A stretch of DNA of 64,000 nt from Eledone cirrhosa (lineage: Eukaryota): contig OZ024740.1 in NCBI GenBank assembly GCA_964016885.1, positions 193,130,001 through 193,194,000 on the forward strand, in the 5' to 3' direction. The position numbers and the translations under genes are program-made. Positions 15,821 through 63,193 of this stretch are shown piece after piece. The first letter of the stretch is position 1. Each line of letters opens with the position of its first letter. The notes beneath the pieces are model-generated. The model was not told where the DNA came from. It saw only the letters and a list, made by a program, of their open reading frames with translations, and searched no databases.

Positions 15821-18792
15821 TGTATTGCAGAGTAATTCGTGGTAGAGGGATGGTCAGTAGGTATGTGTCTGTAAGTGAGTGGGGTATATTTTAACATGTT
15901 AAAATATATTTTTCAGCTCTTGTCTTATACGGAGAAGTGTGTGTATGTGTGTGTGTATAAGTCTCTTTGTATGTTAATGTACGCGGGTGTATGTGTGTGC
16001 GTATATATGTGTGTGTGTATGTGTGTGTGAGAATATGTGTGTGTGTGTGTGTGGGTCGACCAGTAATTTTTCCCTGGTAAATCGATTCTCTCAATAGAAC
16101 ATCAAAAACCTTAACAATAAAAGGTTTGAAATGATATTCACTATATATATATATATACATACATATATTCACTATATATATATATACATATATATTTTTG
16201 TGTTCCACCATAGAACGTGTGTGTTTACGTATGTCATTGTGTTTATATCTGGGTATGTATGTTGACGTGTGTATGTTGTGGGTTCGTCTTAGGGAGAAGT
16301 GTTTAGACGGGGTCAGTATTTGTTAATAAAGTAAGATTCCTTGGTGATGCGCTGGGTGTGGGTGGCATTATCTTTAAATTTGTAGAGGGGAAAGATTCTG
16401 AAGTTGGGATGATTTTGGGCGGCACAGGTATCAATGTGTTCACTCAGTGGTATTTTCCTATATTCCCATATTTTAATTTGGGATCTATGGACAGTCATGC
16501 GTTGGCGGAGGCTGATTTTGGTCTGGCCTATGTATTGTTCTCGACAACCTGAGCAAGTTAATACATATATTAGATTTTCCAATGCACATGTGAAATTGTG
16601 TTTTACTATAAAACGTTGGCCTTCTTTGAAATAGAATTCCGAACCCTCTATTAGGTTGATGCAAATGCCACAGTTGGGTCTATCGCATTTTTTTACTGTG
16701 GGTTTCGTTGTTGTGGTTGGTGGTACTTTGGCATGTGTTAGGATGTTTTTCATTGACTTAGATTGTCTTTTGCTCATTATGATATCGTGTGTGGGTAGGA
16801 TTTGGTTCATTCTATGGTCCTTTTTCAAAACAGGGATGTTCTGGGGGATGGTGTCAAAGGCCTCATTGTTGAAGGGGTTGTGTGTGGAGATGTATGGAAG
16901 AGCTTTTAGTTTCGGTTGATTTACTTTAGGGTGTCTAAGGTCCTGGGTACTGAGTTTTAGGGCACGTTGGATTCCATTGTCAATTAGTGATGCAGGGTAG
17001 TCCCTGCCTTTGAGTGTGTCCTTTAGTTCTTGTAGCCGTAAGTAGCAGGTGTTTTTATTGGAGACTATAGTACATAATCTCTTGGCGAAGTTTTAGGGAA
17101 TATTAATTTTAACGTGTCTAGGGTGGCAAGAGTTGAAAGGTAGACATTGCTGGAGTCTGTGGGCTTGTAGTATATGTCTGTCTCTATTTTTTTGTTATGG
17201 ATCTTAATAAGGATGCCGAGGAAGGGGAGTTGTTACTGGCTGTATTCCATCGTGAAGTTAATAATCGTGTTGAGCCCATTTATAAGTTTTTCGATGTTTT
17301 CGTGCCAAAGGATGAAGCAGTCATCTAGATATCGCTTCCAGTTCCTTTCTATGTGTAAGTGGAGTGTGTTTCCAAATTTGTTTAGGACTTGAGTGTAGAG
17401 GGTGATTTCCAGGTATCCCATGACTAGGTTGGCATAAGTGGGGGCTGTTTTCATTCCCATAGCGGTCCGAGATTTCTGCCTGTAGGGTTTCTTATTGAAA
17501 ACGAAGTAATTGTTCTCCAAGATAAATTTGAGTCCCCCTATCACGAATTCTTTTCTGATGCGTTGTGGGAGATCATTGTGGCAATTATCCAGCCAGAATT
17601 GGATAGCTTCTATGCCTAGGTTGTGGGCGATGTTGGAGTATAGGTGGACTACATCGAACGTCACTAGTAGGGTTTGTTCAGAAAGTGGCATATTAGTGAG
17701 GTGATTGAGCATATCTAAGTCGTCCCTTATATAGCTTTTGATGTGTTTGTGAAAGGGCTTGAGAAGGGTATCAATGAAGTTGCTAAGGCGGTGGGTTTCG
17801 CAAGCGGGGCCTGCTATTATAGGTCTTAATTTGAGATCATTGGGTGAGGGGACATTGATGACTATGTCTGTGGCTTCTTTGCATGCCTTACTTATTAATT
17901 CGATTTTATGTACTTTAGGGATACCGTAGAAAAGGCTGGATTTACTTGTGAAGTCTGTGATGAAGCTGAATTCCTTGTTAGTGAGTCCTTCTTTGTATTG
18001 GTTGATTAGAGCTTTTAGGTTTCTCATAATTTTCTGTTGATTGTAGTGTTCAGCCTTTTCGTAGTATGTTTCGTTTTCCAAAGTGGAGAGCGCTAAGTTG
18101 ATATATAATTCTTTCTCCATTAGGACTACAGTACTACCTTTATCAGCCTCTTTAATTGTAATGGTTCTGTCGGTTTTTAATCTATTTAATTCTTCCCATT
18201 CTTTCTTGTTGAGGTTTGGCTTGTGTTATTGTATGTTCAAGTGTTGGTAATGGCAGTGTATGATGTGTTCACAGAATTCGTCCAGGATTTTATTTCTACC
18301 TTTTGATGGGGTGTAATTGCTACTATTTCTGGCTAATGATTCATCCTCATTGTACTGGTCGAATAGTTGTTCACTAAGTCGTAACTTTCTACAGAAGTCT
18401 GTGATGTCTTCCTTCATTTCATAGTAGTTAGGACGTAGTAGGGTCGGTGTGAATTTAAGACCTTTGGAGAGTAAGTTGATAAGGTTGGGTGTTGGTTCTG
18501 CACTAGTAAGATTGATAATTTGTATTACTATCGGTTTCTCCTCCCTGTCTAAAAATTCAGACATATTCCTTCTGACCATCCCTCTACCACGAAATACAGA
18601 CATATTCCTACTGACCATCCCTCTACCACGAATTATTCTGCTACACACACACACACACACACTTCTCCGTATAAGACAAGAGCTGAAAAATATCTTTTAA
18701 CATGTTAAAATATCCCTCACTCACTTACAGACACATTCCTACTGACCATCCTTCTAGCACGAATTACTCTGCTATACACACGCACGCACACA

Positions 18793-19397: not shown

Positions 19398-21243
<1,846 letters not shown>

Positions 21244-31291: not shown

Positions 31292-31341
<50 letters not shown>

Positions 31342-31346
<5 letters not shown>

Positions 31347-31525
31347 ACAAAGGGATGAAATCGAAAATGCAACTGAAGTCTTATTTTTTTTTTAAATATA
31401 TATATTTAAAAAAAAAATAAGACTTCAGTTGCATTTTCGATTTCATCCCTTTTTCTTTATACTTCCACTCGTGTAGGACACCTCGGTTATTTTTCATTTT
31501 GTAAAAAAAACCTCACTTTCTAATA
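31342..31525 (+). mobile_element. short fold-back element with tail, same family as 29593-29952
   Basis: Palindrome centred on tatatatata, with the same tail ending ctcactttctaa. Confidence 0.85.
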
Positions 31526-32980
31526 TATATATATATATATAAACAATTAAGTTAAAAATGTACATCCACATATGTATACTGAAATACTAGTATGCATATG
31601 AATACCCACACGTATACATATGTAGATGTACCGAGTTTTTCACTGGTCACTTTACTGTGAGTGTCCAGCTATTCTGTATGTAAACACACAGACAAACCGG
31701 TTTTTAGAGTCATACTGGTTTTTGAGGAAACACCTTTCCTCTATTCTCCAGAAAGCCAGACAAGGAATATTGAACTAGTTTCGATGTTGTTACATCTCAT
31801 CAGCAATATTTACCTATCTTCCGGCCTCTCTAGAGAATCGTAAAAGCACATATCGTTATATGCTTTTTCTATGAAAATTAGTAGTGGGCAGACTAATTTG
31901 CATAGAGCGTGAGTACGTACCGGTTCAACGGAGACGATAAAAACAAATAACGAAACGAAATTAAATTTCGTTTCGTTTGTAACTCACTTTTGTATGACTG
32001 ACGCTTAAACAATTAAGTTAAAAATGTACATCCACATATGTATACTGAAATACTAGTATGCATATGAATACACACACGTATACATATGTAGATGTACCGA
32101 GTTTTTCACTGGTCACTTTACTGTGAGTGTCCAGCTATTCTGTATGTAAACACACAGACAAACCGGTTTTTAGAGTCATACTGGTTTTTGAGGAAACACC
32201 TTTCCTCTATTCTCCAGAAAGCCAGACAAGGAATATTGAACTAGTTTCGATGTTGTTACATCTCATCAGCAATATTTAGCTATCATCCGGCCTCTCTAGA
32301 GAATCGTAAAAGCACATATCGTTATATGCTTTTTCTATGAAAATTAGTAGTGGGCAGACTAATTTGCATAAAGCGTGAGTACGTACCGCTTCAACGGAGA
32401 CGATAAAAACAAATAACGAAACGAAATTAAATTTCGTTTCGTTTGTAACTCACTTTTGTATGACTGACGCTTAAACAATTAAGTTAAAAGTGTACATCCA
32501 CATATGTATACTGAAATACTAGTATGCATATGAATACACACACGTATACATATGTAGATGTACCGAGTTTTTCACTGGTCACTTTACTGTGAGTGTCCAG
32601 CTATTCTGTATGTAAACACACAGACAAACCGGTTTTTAGAGTCATACTGGTTTTTGAGGAAACACCTTTCCTCTATTCTCCAGAAAGCCAGACAAGGAAT
32701 ATTGAACTAGTTTCGATGTTGTTACATCTCATCAGCAATATTTACCTATCTTCCGGCCTCTCTAGAGAATCGTAAAAGCACATATCGTTATATGCTTTTT
32801 CTATGAAAATTAGTAGTGGGCAGACTAATTTGCATAGAGCGTGAGTACGTACCGGTACATTTTTAACTTAATTGTTTAAGCGTCAGTCATACAAAAGTGA
32901 GTTACAAACGAAACGAAATTTAACTTCGTTTCGTTATTTGTTTTTATCGTCTCCGTTGAACCGGTACGTACTCACGCTCT

Positions 32981-32988
32981 ATGCAAAT
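32981..32988 (+). promoter_or_regulatory. octamer motif ATGCAAAT upstream of HHR, in every monomer
   Basis: Exact octamer ~93 nt before CUGAUGA. Equivalent motifs at 19856-19863 (-), 20295-20302 (-) and 44770-44777 (+). Confidence 0.45.
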
Positions 32989-33073
32989 TAGTCTGCCCAC
33001 TACTAATTTTCATAGAAAAAGCATATAACGATATGTGCTTTTACGATTCTCTAGAGAGGCCGGAAGATAGGTA

Positions 33074-33118
33074 AATATTGCTGATGAGATGTAACAACAT
33101 CGAAACTAGTTCAATATT
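33074..33118 (+). ncRNA. minimal type I hammerhead ribozyme
   Basis: aatattg-CTGATGA-gatg-taacaa-catc-GAAA-ctag-TT-caatatt. Five identical copies in the array. Confidence 0.9.
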
Positions 33119-33871
33119 CCTTGTCTGGCTTTCTGGAGAATAGAGGAAAGGTGTTTCCTCAAAAACCAGTATGACTCTAAAAACCGGTTTGTCTGTGTGT
33201 TTACATACAGAATAGCTGGACACTCACAGTAAAGTGACCAGTGAAAAACTCGGTACATCTACATATGTATACGTGTGTGTATTCATATGCATACTAGTAT
33301 TTCAGTATACATATGTGGATGTACATTTTTAACTTAATTGTTTAAGCGTCAGTCATACAAAAGTGAGTTACAAACGAAACGAAATTTAATTTCGTTTCGT
33401 TATTTGTTTTTATCGTCTCCGTTGAACCGGTACGTACTCACGCTCTATGCAAATTAGTCTGCCCACTACTAATTTTCATAGAAAAAGCATATAACGATAT
33501 GTGCTTTTACGATTCTCTAGAGAGGCCGGAAGATAGGTAAATATTGCTGATGAGATGTAACAACATCGAAACTAGTTCAATATTCCTTGTCTGGCTTTCT
33601 GGAGAATAGAGGAAAGGTGTTTCCTCAAAAACCAGTATGACTCTAAAAACCGGTTTGTCTGTGTGTTTACATACAGAATAGCTGGACACTCACAGTAAAG
33701 TGACCAGTGAAAAACTCGGTACATCTACATATGTATACGTGTGTGTATTCATATGCATACTAGTATTTCAGTATACATATGTGGATGTACATTTTTAACT
33801 TAATTGTTTAAGCGTCAGTCATACAAAAGTGAGTTACAAACGAAACGAAATTTAATTTCGTTTCGTTATTT

Positions 33872-33942
<71 letters not shown>

Positions 33943-44585: not shown

Positions 44586-45087
44586 GTATACGTACATACA
44601 TATATGTATACAGACGTACAGTATTATGTATATATATACATGCATGCACACATATATACATGCACGTATCGGTTTACCGAACATTTATTATAATGCTCGG
44701 TTTGATTGTTTGTAAACAAACATTCCATTTATCGTTTTCGGTGTGCCTGGCCGACTGAACTCACTCGATATGCAAATTAGGCTGCTTAGCCGTTAATATG
44801 CATCAAGAAAGTATATACTTTCAGACGTTCAACCATCTGGCGGGAAGGTATGCGATGCTGACGATAGCTAATAAGCTTGAAACTAGTACATCGTTCCTGT
44901 GTCATTGTTGAACAAAAAGTTGACGTGGTTGCCTAAACACTGTACGGCGTAATGCGGGCTGTTTGTTTTGTTTACAAACAAACAAACCGAGCATTATAAT
45001 AAATGTTCCGTAAACTGATTCGTGCATGTATGTATATACATATACATACTACTGTAAGTCTGTATACATATATGATTGTACGTATAC
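44586..45087 (+). mobile_element. solo ~500-bp element with long terminal inverted repeats, an octamer and one HHR
   Basis: 44586-44720 pairs with ~44965-45087. HHR at 44853-44893: cgatg-CTGACGA-stem II-GAAA-ctag-TA-catcg. Confidence 0.8.
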
Positions 45088-45129
45088 ATACATACTTATA
45101 TATGTATATATATATATATATATATATAA

Positions 45130-54288: not shown

Positions 54289-54354
<66 letters not shown>

Positions 54355-54744
54355 GTTATTCCGGGTTGAATCGGAGGTAACCACAGTAAGTAAGGTACTC
54401 AATACATAGCAGAGTATAACAGTTTTAATATAGATGAGATTCTACAGGACTAGAACTGTTTCATTCATTAGAAATCATCAGGAATCTGGGTATCAAAAAA
54501 TAAATATGGTATTTATAGGTCTCTACAAGTGGTAGGAGAGGGTGGGGAGTGGGATGGGTGCAGGTCATTGGTTGATAGAAAAGGGAATTCATTAAAAGCT
54601 AATTCTACAAAGCTATAGTTAATTTTTATTTTTATTTATATTTATTTATGTTTTTAGAGTGACAAAGGCAGACAGAATTCTATAAAGAGGTTCCGGATGG
54701 CATACCATTCCTTGTCAATAAGTTTCTCTTAAGCTAGTAAAAAG

Positions 54745-55584
54745 CGTCTCTATTAGAATATCTGGCCTCTCCGCCAACAACGATATTTTTAATGCATCTG
54801 CCTCCTACTACAATGACGCCCTAGCCCGTAGCGGATTTAAAGATAAGATGACTTACCTAGAAACCACCGCTAAATTGCAGAGGAGGAATAGACATAGGCA
54901 GATTAGCTGGTACAACCCTCCCTTCAATAGAGAGGTATCTACTCCGATATCTATGATTTTCTTCACTTTACTGAAATTACACTTCCCCATACAACATAGG
55001 TACTACACCATCTTTAATAAGAACACTATAAGACTGTCTTACTCCACCACACCTAACCTAGCTAGGAATATAGCCAACCACAACTCTAAACTAAATAAGC
55101 CAACCACCTCCGAAACCAATCCCCGGACTGGGGCTCTATGTAATTGCCTTAATAAGGAAGCATGCCCACTAGAAAACAAATGCCTCACAAATCACATCGT
55201 ATACAAATGCGATGTCATCTCGGGCACCGAGGATTGCAAAAAAACTTACATCGGCATGACCTCCAACACCTTTAAGACCCGCTGGTATGCCCATACCCAC
55301 TCCTTCAGAAGACAGGATAAATCTAATCAAACAACACTCGCCTCCTACGTTTGGGACCTCAAAAGGAACTCCACCCCTACACGCTTAATTGGAAAATACT
55401 CCAGAAAGCGCGCTCTTACTACGAAGGACACAAGGGCTGCGACCTTTGTATTTCAGAGAGCTACGAAATTTTATTCGCCAAGGACCCGCTACTGAACAAA
55501 CTCTCTGAACACTGCCCGAACTGCATGCACAAGAACTTTGCAACATTCAAACACTTTAAGCCAGTGTTAAAGCCCGATGGCTAG
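54745..55584 (+). pseudogene. PLE thumb/linker and GIY-YIG endonuclease, one frameshift near 55375
   Basis: WYNPPF, IFNKNTIRLSYS, CNC..CPL..C, IVYKC...YIG, FKTR..H, TTLASYVWDLK, CDLC and C.H. Confidence 0.9.
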
Positions 55585-55824
55585 AAACGACCTCCCCCTA
55601 TTGGCCCCTTTACCTCCTCCCCACCCTACCCCCACCCCTCCTCAACCTGAAATACGGCCACTATGGTCATGTGAGTACCTCTTTCGTATCTACATTTTCT
55701 GCCTGTAGAGGTGTCTTTATGTGCCTGTGTATATGCGTATATTTATTGAGTACCTATTTACTTGTTTGTGTATATATTTGTTTGTATATGTGTATATGTC
55801 TATGTGTGTGTGTGTATATATATG

Positions 55825-55933
<109 letters not shown>

Positions 55934-56099
55934 ATGTGTGTGTGTATATGTGTGTGTATGTGTATGTGTATATATATATATATGTTTGTGTGTATATGTG
56001 TTTTATGTGTGTATATTTATGTAGGTATATGTATGTATGTGTTTGTGTATATGTATGTATGTATGTATATGTGTATGTGTGTGTATATGTATGTGTATA

Positions 56100-56129
<30 letters not shown>

Positions 56130-56146
<17 letters not shown>

Positions 56147-56285
56147 GTATGTATATATGTATGTGTGTGTATATGTATTTTTATGTATATATATATATGT
56201 GTGTATATATATGTTTGTGTGTATATGTGTTTTATGTGTGTATATTTATGTATGTATATGTATGTATGTGTTTGTGTATATGTAT

Positions 56286-56347
<62 letters not shown>

Positions 56348-56512
56348 ATATATATGTATGTATATATATATATGTATGTGCGTACGTATGTGTATGTATG
56401 TATGTATGTATGTATACGTGTGTATGTGTGTGTGTTTGTTTATGTATATGTATGTGTATGTGTGTATGCATGTATGTGTGTGTATGTGTGTGTATATATA
56501 TGTGTATATGCA

Positions 56513-56557
<45 letters not shown>

Positions 56558-56566
56558 GTGTATGTG

Positions 56567-56619
<53 letters not shown>

Positions 56620-56654
56620 GCATGTATATGTATGTATGTGTGTATGTATGTATG

Positions 56655-56705
<51 letters not shown>

Positions 56706-56787
56706 ATATATGTGTATATATATATGTATATATGTATATAAATGTGCATTTGTATATATGTATATGTATGTGTGTGTGTGTATGTAT

Positions 56788-56859
<72 letters not shown>

Positions 56860-56998
56860 ATATATGTGTATATATATATGTATATATGTATATAAGTGTG
56901 CATTTGTATATACGTATATGTATGTGTGTGTATGTATGTATGTATGTATGTGTGTGCGTGTGTGTGTGTGTATATATATATGTATATATATATGTATA

Positions 56999-57052
<54 letters not shown>

Positions 57053-57191
57053 TATACATATATATATACATATATATACACACACACACACACGCACACA
57101 CATACATACATACATACATACACACACATACATATACATATATACAAATGCACACTTATATACATATATACATATATATATACACATATAT

Positions 57192-57257
<66 letters not shown>

Positions 57258-57287
57258 ATACATACACACATACATACATATACATGC

Positions 57288-57329
<42 letters not shown>

Positions 57330-57343
57330 ACATACACATACAC

Positions 57344-57384
<41 letters not shown>

Positions 57385-57551
57385 TACATATACACATATA
57401 TATACACACACATACACACACATACATGCATACACACATACACATACACATACATAAACAAACACACACACATACACACGTATACATACACATACATACA
57501 TACATACACATACGTACGCACATACATATATATATACACATACATATATAT

Positions 57552-57606
<55 letters not shown>

Positions 57607-57748
57607 TACATACATATACACAAACACATACATACATATACATACATAAATATACACACATAAAACACATATACACACAAACATATATATACACACATAT
57701 ATATATATACATAAAAATACATATACACACACATACATATATACATAC

Positions 57749-57775
<27 letters not shown>
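56130..57775. repeat. palindrome of compound microsatellite sequence
   Basis: Unique interruptions (cgtacg, tgtgcatttg, gttttatg) are mirrored around a TA run at ~57025. Confidence 0.85.
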
Positions 57776-57784
<9 letters not shown>

Positions 57785-57786
<2 letters not shown>

Positions 57787-58391
57787 TGTTATACTTTGGG
57801 AGGGTCATGTTGCCAATAAGAAACACACGCACCAGTTGCTTTCACTTCAATTTAATTTATTAAATATTTATAAATTTACAAATTTATAAATTTCTGGTTG
57901 GTTGGTTGGTTCCACAACCAGATAGTTGTTTATATATATATAGTCATAGTTCTTTCGTCACACACTCTGTGACCACTTCAGTGACTGGGGATTTCTTTCT
58001 TCGTTTCTGTAGCCTTTCCTTTCTTCTATCCTACGCCATTTTGTTTGCGTAGGATAGAAGAAAGGAAAGGCACATTTTGTTGGCGTAGGATAGAAGAAAG
58101 GAAAGGCACAGAAACGAAGAAAGAAATCCCCAGTCACTGAAGAGGTCACAGAGTGTGTGACGAAAGAACTATGACTATATATATATAAACAACTATCTGG
58201 TTGTGGAACCAACCAACCAACCAGAAATTTATAAATTTGTAAATTTATAAATATTTAATAAATTAAATTGAAGTGAAAGCAACTGGTGCGTGTGTTTCTT
58301 ATTGGCAACATGACCCTCCCAAAGTATAACAATATCGGTTTCAACACACGATTTCAGATAAAGAATCTTGCTAAACAAATTCAGAAACGAA

Positions 58392-58392
<1 letters not shown>
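57785..58392 (+). mobile_element. fold-back HHR element with tail
   Basis: Arms ~57785-58040 and ~58082-58332, tail to 58392. HHR at 58132-58176: agtca-CTGAAGA-..-GAAA-gaac-TA-tgact. Confidence 0.9.
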
Positions 58393-58422
<30 letters not shown>

Positions 58423-58423
58423 C

Positions 58424-58481
<58 letters not shown>

Positions 58482-58563
58482 ATATATATGTATACACACA
58501 TATATATATATATGTATTTGTGTATGTATGTGTATATATGTATGTATATGATTGTGTGGGCAG

Positions 58564-58627
<64 letters not shown>

Positions 58628-58642
58628 ATGTGTATGTATATA

Positions 58643-58705
<63 letters not shown>

Positions 58706-58861
58706 GTATATGTATGTATATATATGTACATATGTATATATATGTATATATATGTGTATGTGTGTGTATTTGTATGTATACATGTATATGCGTGTATGTG
58801 TGTGTGTGTGTATGTATTATATGAATGTGAGTATATATATATATATATATATGTGTATATG

Positions 58862-58896
<35 letters not shown>

Positions 58897-58959
58897 GTGT
58901 ATATGTATGTATATGTATATATATATATATATGTATATGTATGTGTATGTGTGTGTATG

Positions 58960-59016
<57 letters not shown>

Positions 59017-59342
59017 CATGAGATAGATAGTGTGTGTGTATATATATTTTGTGTGTCGGTGTGTGTATGTGTGTATGCGCGCGTGTGTGTGTATATGTGT
59101 ATATATATGTATGTGTATATGTATATGTATGTATGTGTATATATGTATATATTTATATATATGTGTATGTATGTGTATATATATATGTATATGTGTGTAT
59201 ATATATATGTATGTATATGTATATATATATGTATATATGTGTATGTATATGTGTGTGTATATGTGCGTTATATGTCTGTATATATATGTGTATATTTATG
59301 TATAGGTCTGTGTATGTATGTGTATGTTTTGTGTATGTATGG

Positions 59343-59374
<32 letters not shown>

Positions 59375-59392
59375 TTGTATATGTGTGTGTAT

Positions 59393-59436
<44 letters not shown>

Positions 59437-59469
59437 GTATGTATATGTATGTATATATATGTGTATATA

Positions 59470-59503
<34 letters not shown>

Positions 59504-59659
59504 TATGTGTGTGTATATATATATATATATGTGTGTATGTGTGTGTGTATAGATATTTATACATATGTATACTCGTGTTTGTTTGTATGCGTGTGAGTGT
59601 ATTCATTTGTGTATATATATGTGTGTGTGTGTGTATGTATGTGTATGTGTGTGTGTATC

Positions 59660-59712
<53 letters not shown>

Positions 59713-59875
59713 GTATATATATATGTATATATATATATACGTATATATATGTGTGTGTGTGTATGTGTGTATATTTATACATATGTATACTCGTGTTTGT
59801 TTGTATGCGTGTGAGTGTATTTATTTGTGTATATATATGTGTGTGTGTGTGTATGTATGTGTATGTGTGTGTATC

Positions 59876-59967
<92 letters not shown>

Positions 59968-60905
59968 CGTATATATGTGTGTGTGTGTGTATGTGTGTGT
60001 ATGTATATTTGTATGTATATATATGTATGTATGTTTGTATATGTATGTATATATGTATGTATATATATGTATATATATGTGAATATATATATATATATAT
60101 ATATGTATATGTGCGTATGTATATGTCTATGTGTATTATATATGTATGTATGTATGTATGTGTGTATGTATGTGTGTGTACATGAATATATATATATATA
60201 TATATATATATTTATTTATATATTTTTTATATATGTGTGTGTGTTTTTATGTGAGTATATGTGTTTGTGTGTGTGTTTATGGTTGCGCGTAAGTGTGTGA
60301 GTGAGTATGTGTGTTTTTTTGTTTTTTATGTGTGTTTTTTTGTTTTTCTGTTTTTTTGTTTTTTTTGTTTTTTTGTTTTTTTGTGAATGTGTCTGTTGAT
60401 TTTGGCATATTGTTGATTAGTTTAAGAGAAGTTCGAAGATAATAGTAAGATATGCACTCAGTATTTTGAATCTGTCTGCAGAATTCTCTAGACCTTTGTC
60501 ACTTAGTAGAACCTTAATGACTTTAGCTTTTAAAGAATCTCCCTTTTCTTTAATTCTATGGAGCATGACTGACCCCCCCACTGATTTTATAGACATCTGT
60601 TAGCTTAAGAGAAACTTATTGACAAGGAATGGTATGCCATCCGGAACCTGTTTATAGAATTCTGTCTGCCTTTGTCACTCTAAAAACATAAATAAATATA
60701 AATAAAAATAAAAATTAACTATAGCTTTGTAGAATTAGCTTTTAATGAATTCCCTTTTCTATCAACCAATGACCTGCACCCATCCCACTCCCCACCCTCT
60801 CCTACCACTTGTAAATACCATATTTATTTTTTGATACCCAGATTCCTGATGATTTCTAATGAATGAAACAGTTCTAGTCCTGTAGAATCTCATCTATATT
60901 AAAAC

Positions 60906-63193
<2,288 letters not shown>

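Follow-up and report, generated by a model that had tools for sequence, protein, structure and literature searches.

Non-LTR retrozymes are tandem repeats whose units carry hammerheads and are expressed as circles; Penelope-like elements (PLEs) have been put forward as candidates for their mobilisation, together with a model in which tandem cDNA is copied from the circular template (PMC7229834). Their units are reported to span 150-450 bp in metazoans (PMC7229834, Cervera and de la Pena 2020), and a range of 51-972 bp is given in a 2026 preprint, which also argues that retrozymes derive from PLE pLTRs (bioRxiv 10.64898/2026.07.22.740005; Li, Clavereau, Pollet 2026). Insertions of endonuclease-bearing PLEs are described as carrying an inverted, 5'-truncated copy, mostly head-to-head, with a one-sided tail and a bias towards (TA)n (PMC8557442, Craig et al. 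2021), and microsatellite targets of this kind mask duplications. One PLE protein is reported to nick and extend both target strands, is predicted to form a dimer, and starts at two internal RNA sites bounding the tail (PMC11167929, Frangieh et al. 2024); head-to-head junctions have been interpreted as the product of self-priming (PMC3846280, Arkhipova et al. 2013). The tandem and inverted insertion of PLEs and the mobilisation of animal retrozymes are treated as open questions in the available text of PMC8557442, PMC7229834 and the 2026 preprint.

The locus described here lies in a 64,000-nt window, by which we mean the whole stretch of DNA analysed. It consists of a 466-bp tandem repeat in two blocks, the left (31540-32854) with 2.8 copies at 98% matches and the right (32855-33879) with 2.2 copies at 99% matches; each block matches the reverse complement of the other with 99-100% identity. 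The unit is slightly longer than the 150-450 bp range and falls within that of 51-972 bp. Both element ends sit in (TA)n tracts, (TA)9 before the left arm and (TA)34 after the right arm, which mask any target-site duplication. With unit positions numbered from the predicted cut (33112 is position 1), the features are:

31524..31541, no strand: left (TA)9 target tract, its last TA common to the tract and the element end
31540..32856, minus strand: left arm of 2.8 units, ribozyme sense leftward, outer end at 233 (site 1), inner end at 315
31750..31821, minus strand: type I hammerhead motif, predicted cut after 31773
32216..32287, minus strand: type I hammerhead motif, predicted cut after 32239
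32682..32753, minus strand: type I hammerhead motif, predicted cut after 32705
32855..32856, no strand: head-to-head junction, asymmetric, joining positions 315 and 210 with a 2-nt overlap, GT
32855..33875, plus strand: right arm of 2.2 units, ribozyme sense rightward, inner end at 210, outer end at ~298 (site 2)
33063..33134, plus strand: type I hammerhead motif, predicted cut after GUU at 33111
33112..33577, plus strand: one complete 466-nt unit, cut to cut, the predicted monomer or circle; non-coding
33339..33413, plus strand: 'tail' within that unit, between site 1 (228-233) and site 2 (298-302)
33529..33600, plus strand: type I hammerhead motif, predicted cut after 33577
33875..33942, no strand: right (TA)34 target tract

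This layout agrees with the initial annotation, which had described about 2.8 and 2.2 near-identical 466-bp units running in opposite directions, ribozyme-sense strands pointing outward from the flip, (TA)n at both ends, and two strong hairpins in the monomer, both of which are present. The gtac/ggtac microhomology that it placed at the flip (~32855) shrinks to GT, the only exact sequence common to the two arms there (32855-32856), or to 4/5 positions if one mismatch is allowed. The tail holds a 29-nt hairpin, and we infer that its borders are two start points of reverse transcription. The longest ATG frame of the unit runs to 19 aa in the sense direction and to 50 aa in the antisense direction, and none of the 310 family ribozymes is followed by a reading frame. 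Judged by its reading frames, the element has neither the coding content nor the LTR/PBS/PPT organisation that non-LTR retrozymes lack, and no RT and GIY-YIG frame of the kind that marks an autonomous PLE occurs in it. Just left of the array, between (TA)n tracts, lies a near-perfect 122-bp palindrome (31340-31461), which is high-copy in contigs from public runs and may be a minimal two-armed insertion of another family.

An Rfam search returned no match in the array at the gathering score; five matches to HH9 fall below it (36.5-36.8 bits, E ~6e-7, gathering score 52), three on the minus strand left of the flip and two on the plus strand right of it, so that the 3' ends of the RNA point outward. 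The hammerhead at 33063..33134 has a helix I of 7 bp, a helix II of 5 bp and a helix III of 1 bp with a palindromic loop, a form described as needing a dimer (PMC4209133), and by analogy it is therefore likely to be active as one. In an alignment of 11 ribozyme variants from the 466-bp family and its sister family, 93% of cells are paired (28-50% in slid controls) and 6/13 pairs show two-sided change, the rows being related so that the shuffle control gives no probability. The core is intact and covarying, and self-cleavage is predicted. The whole 466-nt unit folds at -163 kcal/mol (z = -10), with none of 100 shuffles as stable, and has 141 consensus pairs, six of them with two-sided change among 47 units. 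Matches of the unit to microRNA and sRNA models were rejected, as they lie far below gathering scores and reflect the hairpins. A ATGCAAAT motif precedes each ribozyme by ~100 nt, at 32981 and 33447 on the plus strand and at 31896, 32362 and 32828 on the minus strand; it is kept in the sister family and present in the 440-bp family described below. The motif resembles the octamer of snRNA-type promoters, and is a possible internal promoter element. An octamer-driven promoter is reportedly found in newt satellite 2; a literature search listed no paper on it.

Dispersed copies of the 466-bp family, anticipated in the initial annotation, were found in the 3.0-Gb genome. An exact pattern search located 933 copies of a 39-nt ribozyme stretch, itself a minority variant (67/331 motifs in the surveyed loci). 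The element-to-(TA)n junction at site 2 (~298) occurs in 271 exact copies and that at site 1 (233) in 642, against none for the reversed control in either case. As the site 1 variant searched represents only 9/48 unselected site 1 ends, we estimate the family at about three to four thousand insertions. The array is real, young and abundant, and this locus is ordinary within its family.

To describe that family we surveyed 70 of the 100 listed places for each junction (of 271 and 642), which after removal of three duplicates (L100, L084 and L139) left 137 loci chosen by one end in (TA)n, 11 of them classed by hand; L071 is the window's own insertion. An inversion is present in 115/137, so that the recurrence proposed for the inversion and the (TA)n ends holds at other loci and the flip is the normal form of the family, not a one-off. 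Among the 70 loci anchored at site 2, the inverted partner arm ends at site 1 in 54 and at site 2 in none; four are inverted beyond the retrieved sequence, two are inverted and end elsewhere, nine are one-armed and one is unresolved. The 67 anchored at site 1 have 44 partner arms ending at site 2 and one at site 1, with eight inverted beyond the retrieved sequence, two ending elsewhere, seven one-armed, three whose retrieved sequence ends before any flip and two at gaps. Where both ends lie at the usual sites, ~68 nt apart (the tail offset), there is thus one of each in 98/99 loci (p = 2e-28 against free choice). Ten places first skipped added six one-of-each loci, two one-armed and two unclear ones, and no same-site pair. 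Flips are also present in 6/9 insertions reached by the ribozyme pattern alone, and opposite-strand ribozyme neighbours point outward in 52 cases and inward in none.

Partner ends, which were not chosen for it, nearly always sit in (TA)n where the locus could be resolved. At site 2, most ends fall where the RNA sequence is UAU (32/37 in one class), which could pair with a TA primer, while site 1 ends are spread over 228-233. Of the short site-2 arms, 3/11 stop exactly at 234, adjoining site 1 (p ~0.015), as if both primers sat on one molecule. One locus of unusual size, at C1:81.85-81.88 Mb (L040, L041), combines a 2.2-unit left arm with a right arm that extends for ~34 kb, or some 70 units, and ends at neither usual site.

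It could be supposed that such arrays arose at the DNA level, by fusion of two insertions or inversion through recombination, or that a palindromic repeat was misassembled. This window's flip is bridged by none of the 30 contig pieces listed (of 529), a circumstance that would suit an artefact and that we do not take as evidence, and growth at the DNA level does occur in a 30-unit array discussed below. The regularity of the survey argues against it: flips in 115/137 loci, always outward and with paired end sites, and haplotypes common to both arms. Contigs from public runs moreover contain at least 15 left-arm-to-right-arm joints at other positions (14 and 1, in two runs), the richest source of which may be the source sample itself; having been assembled separately, they indicate that flips are not confined to this assembly. 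A Hi-C run of another organism, sampled at ~1 in 100, gave no reads on the array and is likewise not taken as evidence. We regard an origin at the DNA level or by misassembly as scarcely plausible.

The initial annotation attributed the flip to the PLE fold-back step; on such a reading, one cDNA (or the RNA) would snap back on a hairpin and self-prime the inverted arm. Most junctions do not fit this; 100 clean examples were compiled after five complex loci were left out. The flip in this window is asymmetric by 105 nt, and 83/100 junctions join positions more than 15 nt apart, with nine at 4-15 nt. Mirror-symmetric junctions number between 8 (strict) and 13 (BLAST ends) per 100; they lie mostly at the unit's hairpins and exceed the 1.5 expected, which counts in favour of fold-back, and palindromic head-to-head junctions have been read as self-priming in rotifer Penelope elements (PMC3846280). 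Two separate cDNA ends can, however, anneal at hairpin junctions too. Among the 83 asymmetric junctions, 43 have no insert, and 17/43 of these overlap by at least 3 nt, against 6.9% for random joins, as scored by strict extension, since BLAST-end counts overstate overlaps (5 nt at this flip). Inserts are present at the other 40/83; part of them were copied from neighbouring unit sequence, and others are only apparent, because strict extension inflates inserts where copies have diverged between subfamilies.

Flip points are scattered anywhere in the unit. In many loci the second arm exceeds the first in length; over 85 loci the two lengths are similar (medians of 441 and 421 nt) and show no correlation (rho 0.13). 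These lengths count against fold-back, which also gives no reason for the two outer ends to use different fixed sites. We read the junction pattern as that of end-joining between two separately made cDNAs, and the scattered flips together with the haplotype common to both arms favour two-sided priming plus end-joining. Fold-back as the general cause of the flip is accordingly very unlikely.

The rolling-circle copying also proposed in the initial annotation predicts units that are clonal within an insertion, and this was observed, with both arms sharing one haplotype. Across 51 loci, the median divergence is 0.6% from arm to arm and 0.7% within an arm, against 4.4% to other loci, and subfamilies are up to 11% apart. 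Thirty-seven variants are fixed in one locus and absent from the other 133, 23/37 of them in both arms; they are private only among the 134 sampled loci, a few percent of a family of thousands. Three loci (L144, L168 and L169) carry a single haplotype through all units, L168 and L169 with zero differences among units. Arm-to-arm divergence is not below the distance to the nearest other sampled locus (47/79, p = 0.29), which would also allow two RNAs from one donor or subfamily. In the 30-unit array, variants recur in non-adjacent units, so long arrays also grow at the DNA level. Counts of A>G and T>C changes, compared as a possible mark of RNA editing, are 7 and 7 among locus-private variants and 27 and 14 among those in up to three loci, which are not independent. 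In this window, the unit at 32239-32704 holds 5/7 of the array's differences, and none of its private variants occurs in the 32 other loci that have whole units. A template switch, an assembly error or conversion by a copy outside the sample could each account for this.

We propose that a borrowed PLE reverse transcriptase/endonuclease cut both (TA)n strands and used the two DNA ends to prime the copying of a single RNA, probably circular, and give this reading a probability of about 0.62. Its two parts differ in strength: we are highly confident of PLE-driven priming from two ends, and lean, with much less assurance, towards a circular template. Under this proposal, arrays would be transcribed, cut by dimeric hammerheads and ligated into 466-nt circles. 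A PLE protein, most plausibly of the Hydra type, would bind the tail region and nick both (TA)n strands, and each target 3' end would prime at one border of the tail. Both polymerases would continue past the ligation point for a variable length, the two cDNA ends would be joined by microhomology end-joining to give the flip, and the longest arrays would extend further at the DNA level.

Arms cross the cut site in 142/200 cases, and inner ends do not pile up there (4/166 within 5 nt, 3.9 expected); since arms pass the cut site without stopping, the template was not a single cut linear unit read once. The same absence of a pile-up fits multimers as well as circles, and two-ended PLE priming could have used an uncut multimeric transcript of a young, uniform array, with no circle needed, or, in a variant, cut linear units with repeated template jumps. 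Very uniform arrays, possible donors, do exist, and uncleaved RNA was the main substrate in vitro, with ribozyme cleavage dispensable, in the reported PLE system (PMC11167929), which favours a multimer and counts against the circle. Copying a multimer, however, cannot lengthen an arm and should let internal variety build up, whereas subfamilies up to 11% apart each yield near-clonal insertions, and locus-private variants run throughout all units of both arms. The clonality calls for passage through one unit that is then repeated, as a circle would allow most simply, and we consider two-ended priming without a circle rather unlikely.

Several observations weigh against copying of a circle from two ends. 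A GUU site with a 1-bp helix III may cut poorly; 8/9 predicted frog retrozymes are reported to lack cleavage in vitro (bioRxiv 10.64898/2026.07.22.740005). The tail has no similarity to the two PLE families examined, mirror-symmetric flips exceed expectation as noted above, and the concentration of differences in one unit of this window is unlike a perfectly clonal birth.

Two PLE families represented in the window were considered as sources of the enzyme (14,844 and 48,531 candidates at first look, 150 of each scored), their clade names being assigned from motifs compared by eye with PMC8557442. The first is Neptune-type: a broken copy at 16313-18696 (minus strand) encodes an RT (RVT_1), a zinc-finger linker and a GIY-YIG domain. 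Many copies of this family are open over 784 aa; an upstream frame of 455 aa accompanies some, and outward-facing pairs occur. The second, of which the window holds a truncated copy, is Hydra-type by its CxC...C linker and lack of an internal CCHH, and has many 758-aa open copies and a hammerhead before its frame. Neither of these two families has detectable similarity to the 466-bp unit or its tail. The autonomous Hydra-type elements end in (TA)n either 49-65 nt (15/26) or 127-131 nt (11/26) after the ribozyme start; the two classes are 68 nt apart, the same offset as in the 466-bp unit, and three close outward pairs (L032, L108 and L220) have one end of each kind. By analogy, this suggests a Hydra-type PLE as the partner. 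Elsewhere in the window, 54354-60909 has two ribozyme-bearing ends, one inverted at 54481 that includes the tail and one direct at 60846 that does not; between them lie a truncated frame (54722-55495) and ~4.5 kb of TA/TG-rich sequence. This is probably one Hydra-type insertion, again with one end of each kind.

A more specific mechanism, which we offer tentatively and at slightly less than even odds, is that a PLE dimer sits on one small circular ribozyme RNA. The two cut target strands would prime its polymerases at opposite borders of the 68-nt binding site, and these would then travel round the circle one behind the other until their products are end-joined. If true, this would explain the inverted-plus-tail layout of all PLEs, long without an explanation, by two-ended priming, not self-priming, and would amount to evidence, at the genome level, that rolling-circle reverse transcription takes place in animal germ lines.

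Other hammerhead families were noted in the course of the survey. A sister family (44592-45098 in the window; L226, L263) aligns with the 466-bp unit over most of its length at ~65% identity, has helices that differ in sequence yet pair, and shows flips of its own. At least ten further families (L042-L272), including a 310-bp array in L222, mostly have two distance classes to (TA)n and only outward-facing pairs. A further 440-bp tandem repeat, older (85% matches), occupies 19594-21180 of the window; it shows a hammerhead-like core and an inverted block and is bounded on either side by (TA)n. Of 24 public runs listed for words sampled from the array, none is marked as RNA. Runs of sixteen other organisms contain at least a fifth of these words, and one of these organisms gave a 343-nt contig with two letters different; these may represent close relatives, mixed samples or horizontal spread.

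Retrozymes, the head-to-head PLE layout and two start sites are each already known. The link between retrozymes and PLEs drawn in the initial annotation is supported here by insertion marks of the PLE type on retrozyme arrays (the 68-nt offset, compared with PMC8557442 and PMC11167929), and its novelty falls away, as the available text of PMC7229834 and of the 2026 preprint (bioRxiv 10.64898/2026.07.22.740005) already makes it. For the one-of-each rule, two-armed retrozymes or PLE twin priming, no published description was found in the open-access literature searched.

Twin priming is known from LINE-1, where both target strands prime and outward-facing pieces are joined by microhomology. In that case the poly(A) end serves one of the primers, and there is no overlap between the pieces. 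The 466-bp family differs in that its two starts are internal and fixed, and in that one sequence recurs in both arms.

Like the metazoan non-LTR retrozymes, the array consists of non-coding tandem units of a few hundred bp with low GC, each with one type I hammerhead, highly self-paired and co-existing with PLEs. The available accounts of such retrozymes (PMC7229834; the 2026 preprint) describe no head-to-head arms, tail or two fixed ends, all of which are found here; the words 'inversion', 'tail' and 'orientation' are absent from the available text of the preprint. The preprint, as far as that text goes, prefers unequal crossover as the source of local growth and reports pLTR homology, whereas short arrays here look born as arrays and have no homologous pLTR in the two PLE families examined.

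With endonuclease-bearing PLEs the family shares the inverted copy, the tail at one end, the microsatellite target and the two internal start sites. It differs in having no coding frame, in that both arms are multi-unit, in a tail of ~68 nt (30-40 published) and in junctions that are mostly not palindromic. Hydra-clade PLEs, represented in this genome by the young 758-aa family, likewise have (TA)n targets, a hammerhead, outward-facing pairs and a 68-nt offset between end classes, but their ends lie 60-128 nt after the ribozyme start, against ~260-330 nt in the 466-bp unit, and they have no detectable sequence similarity to its ribozyme or tail. MRC1 and other non-autonomous Chlamys PLEs (PMC8557442, PMC9940879) resemble it as PLE passengers with multi-copy head-to-tail insertions; unlike it, they are described from a green alga, in a clade mostly without canonical hammerheads, and are similar in sequence to their autonomous partners.

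In every feature that could be examined here, the 466-bp array is a non-LTR retrozyme, and it works in the manner of a PLE insertion. Its family offers thousands of young insertions, two mapped start sites and the one-of-each rule, and its short 466-nt template, with an intact candidate enzyme family in the same genome, makes both of the questions left open for PLEs and retrozymes testable in vitro. Set beside the self-priming interpretation of PLE head-to-head junctions, it gives quantitative support for two-ended priming over fold-back.
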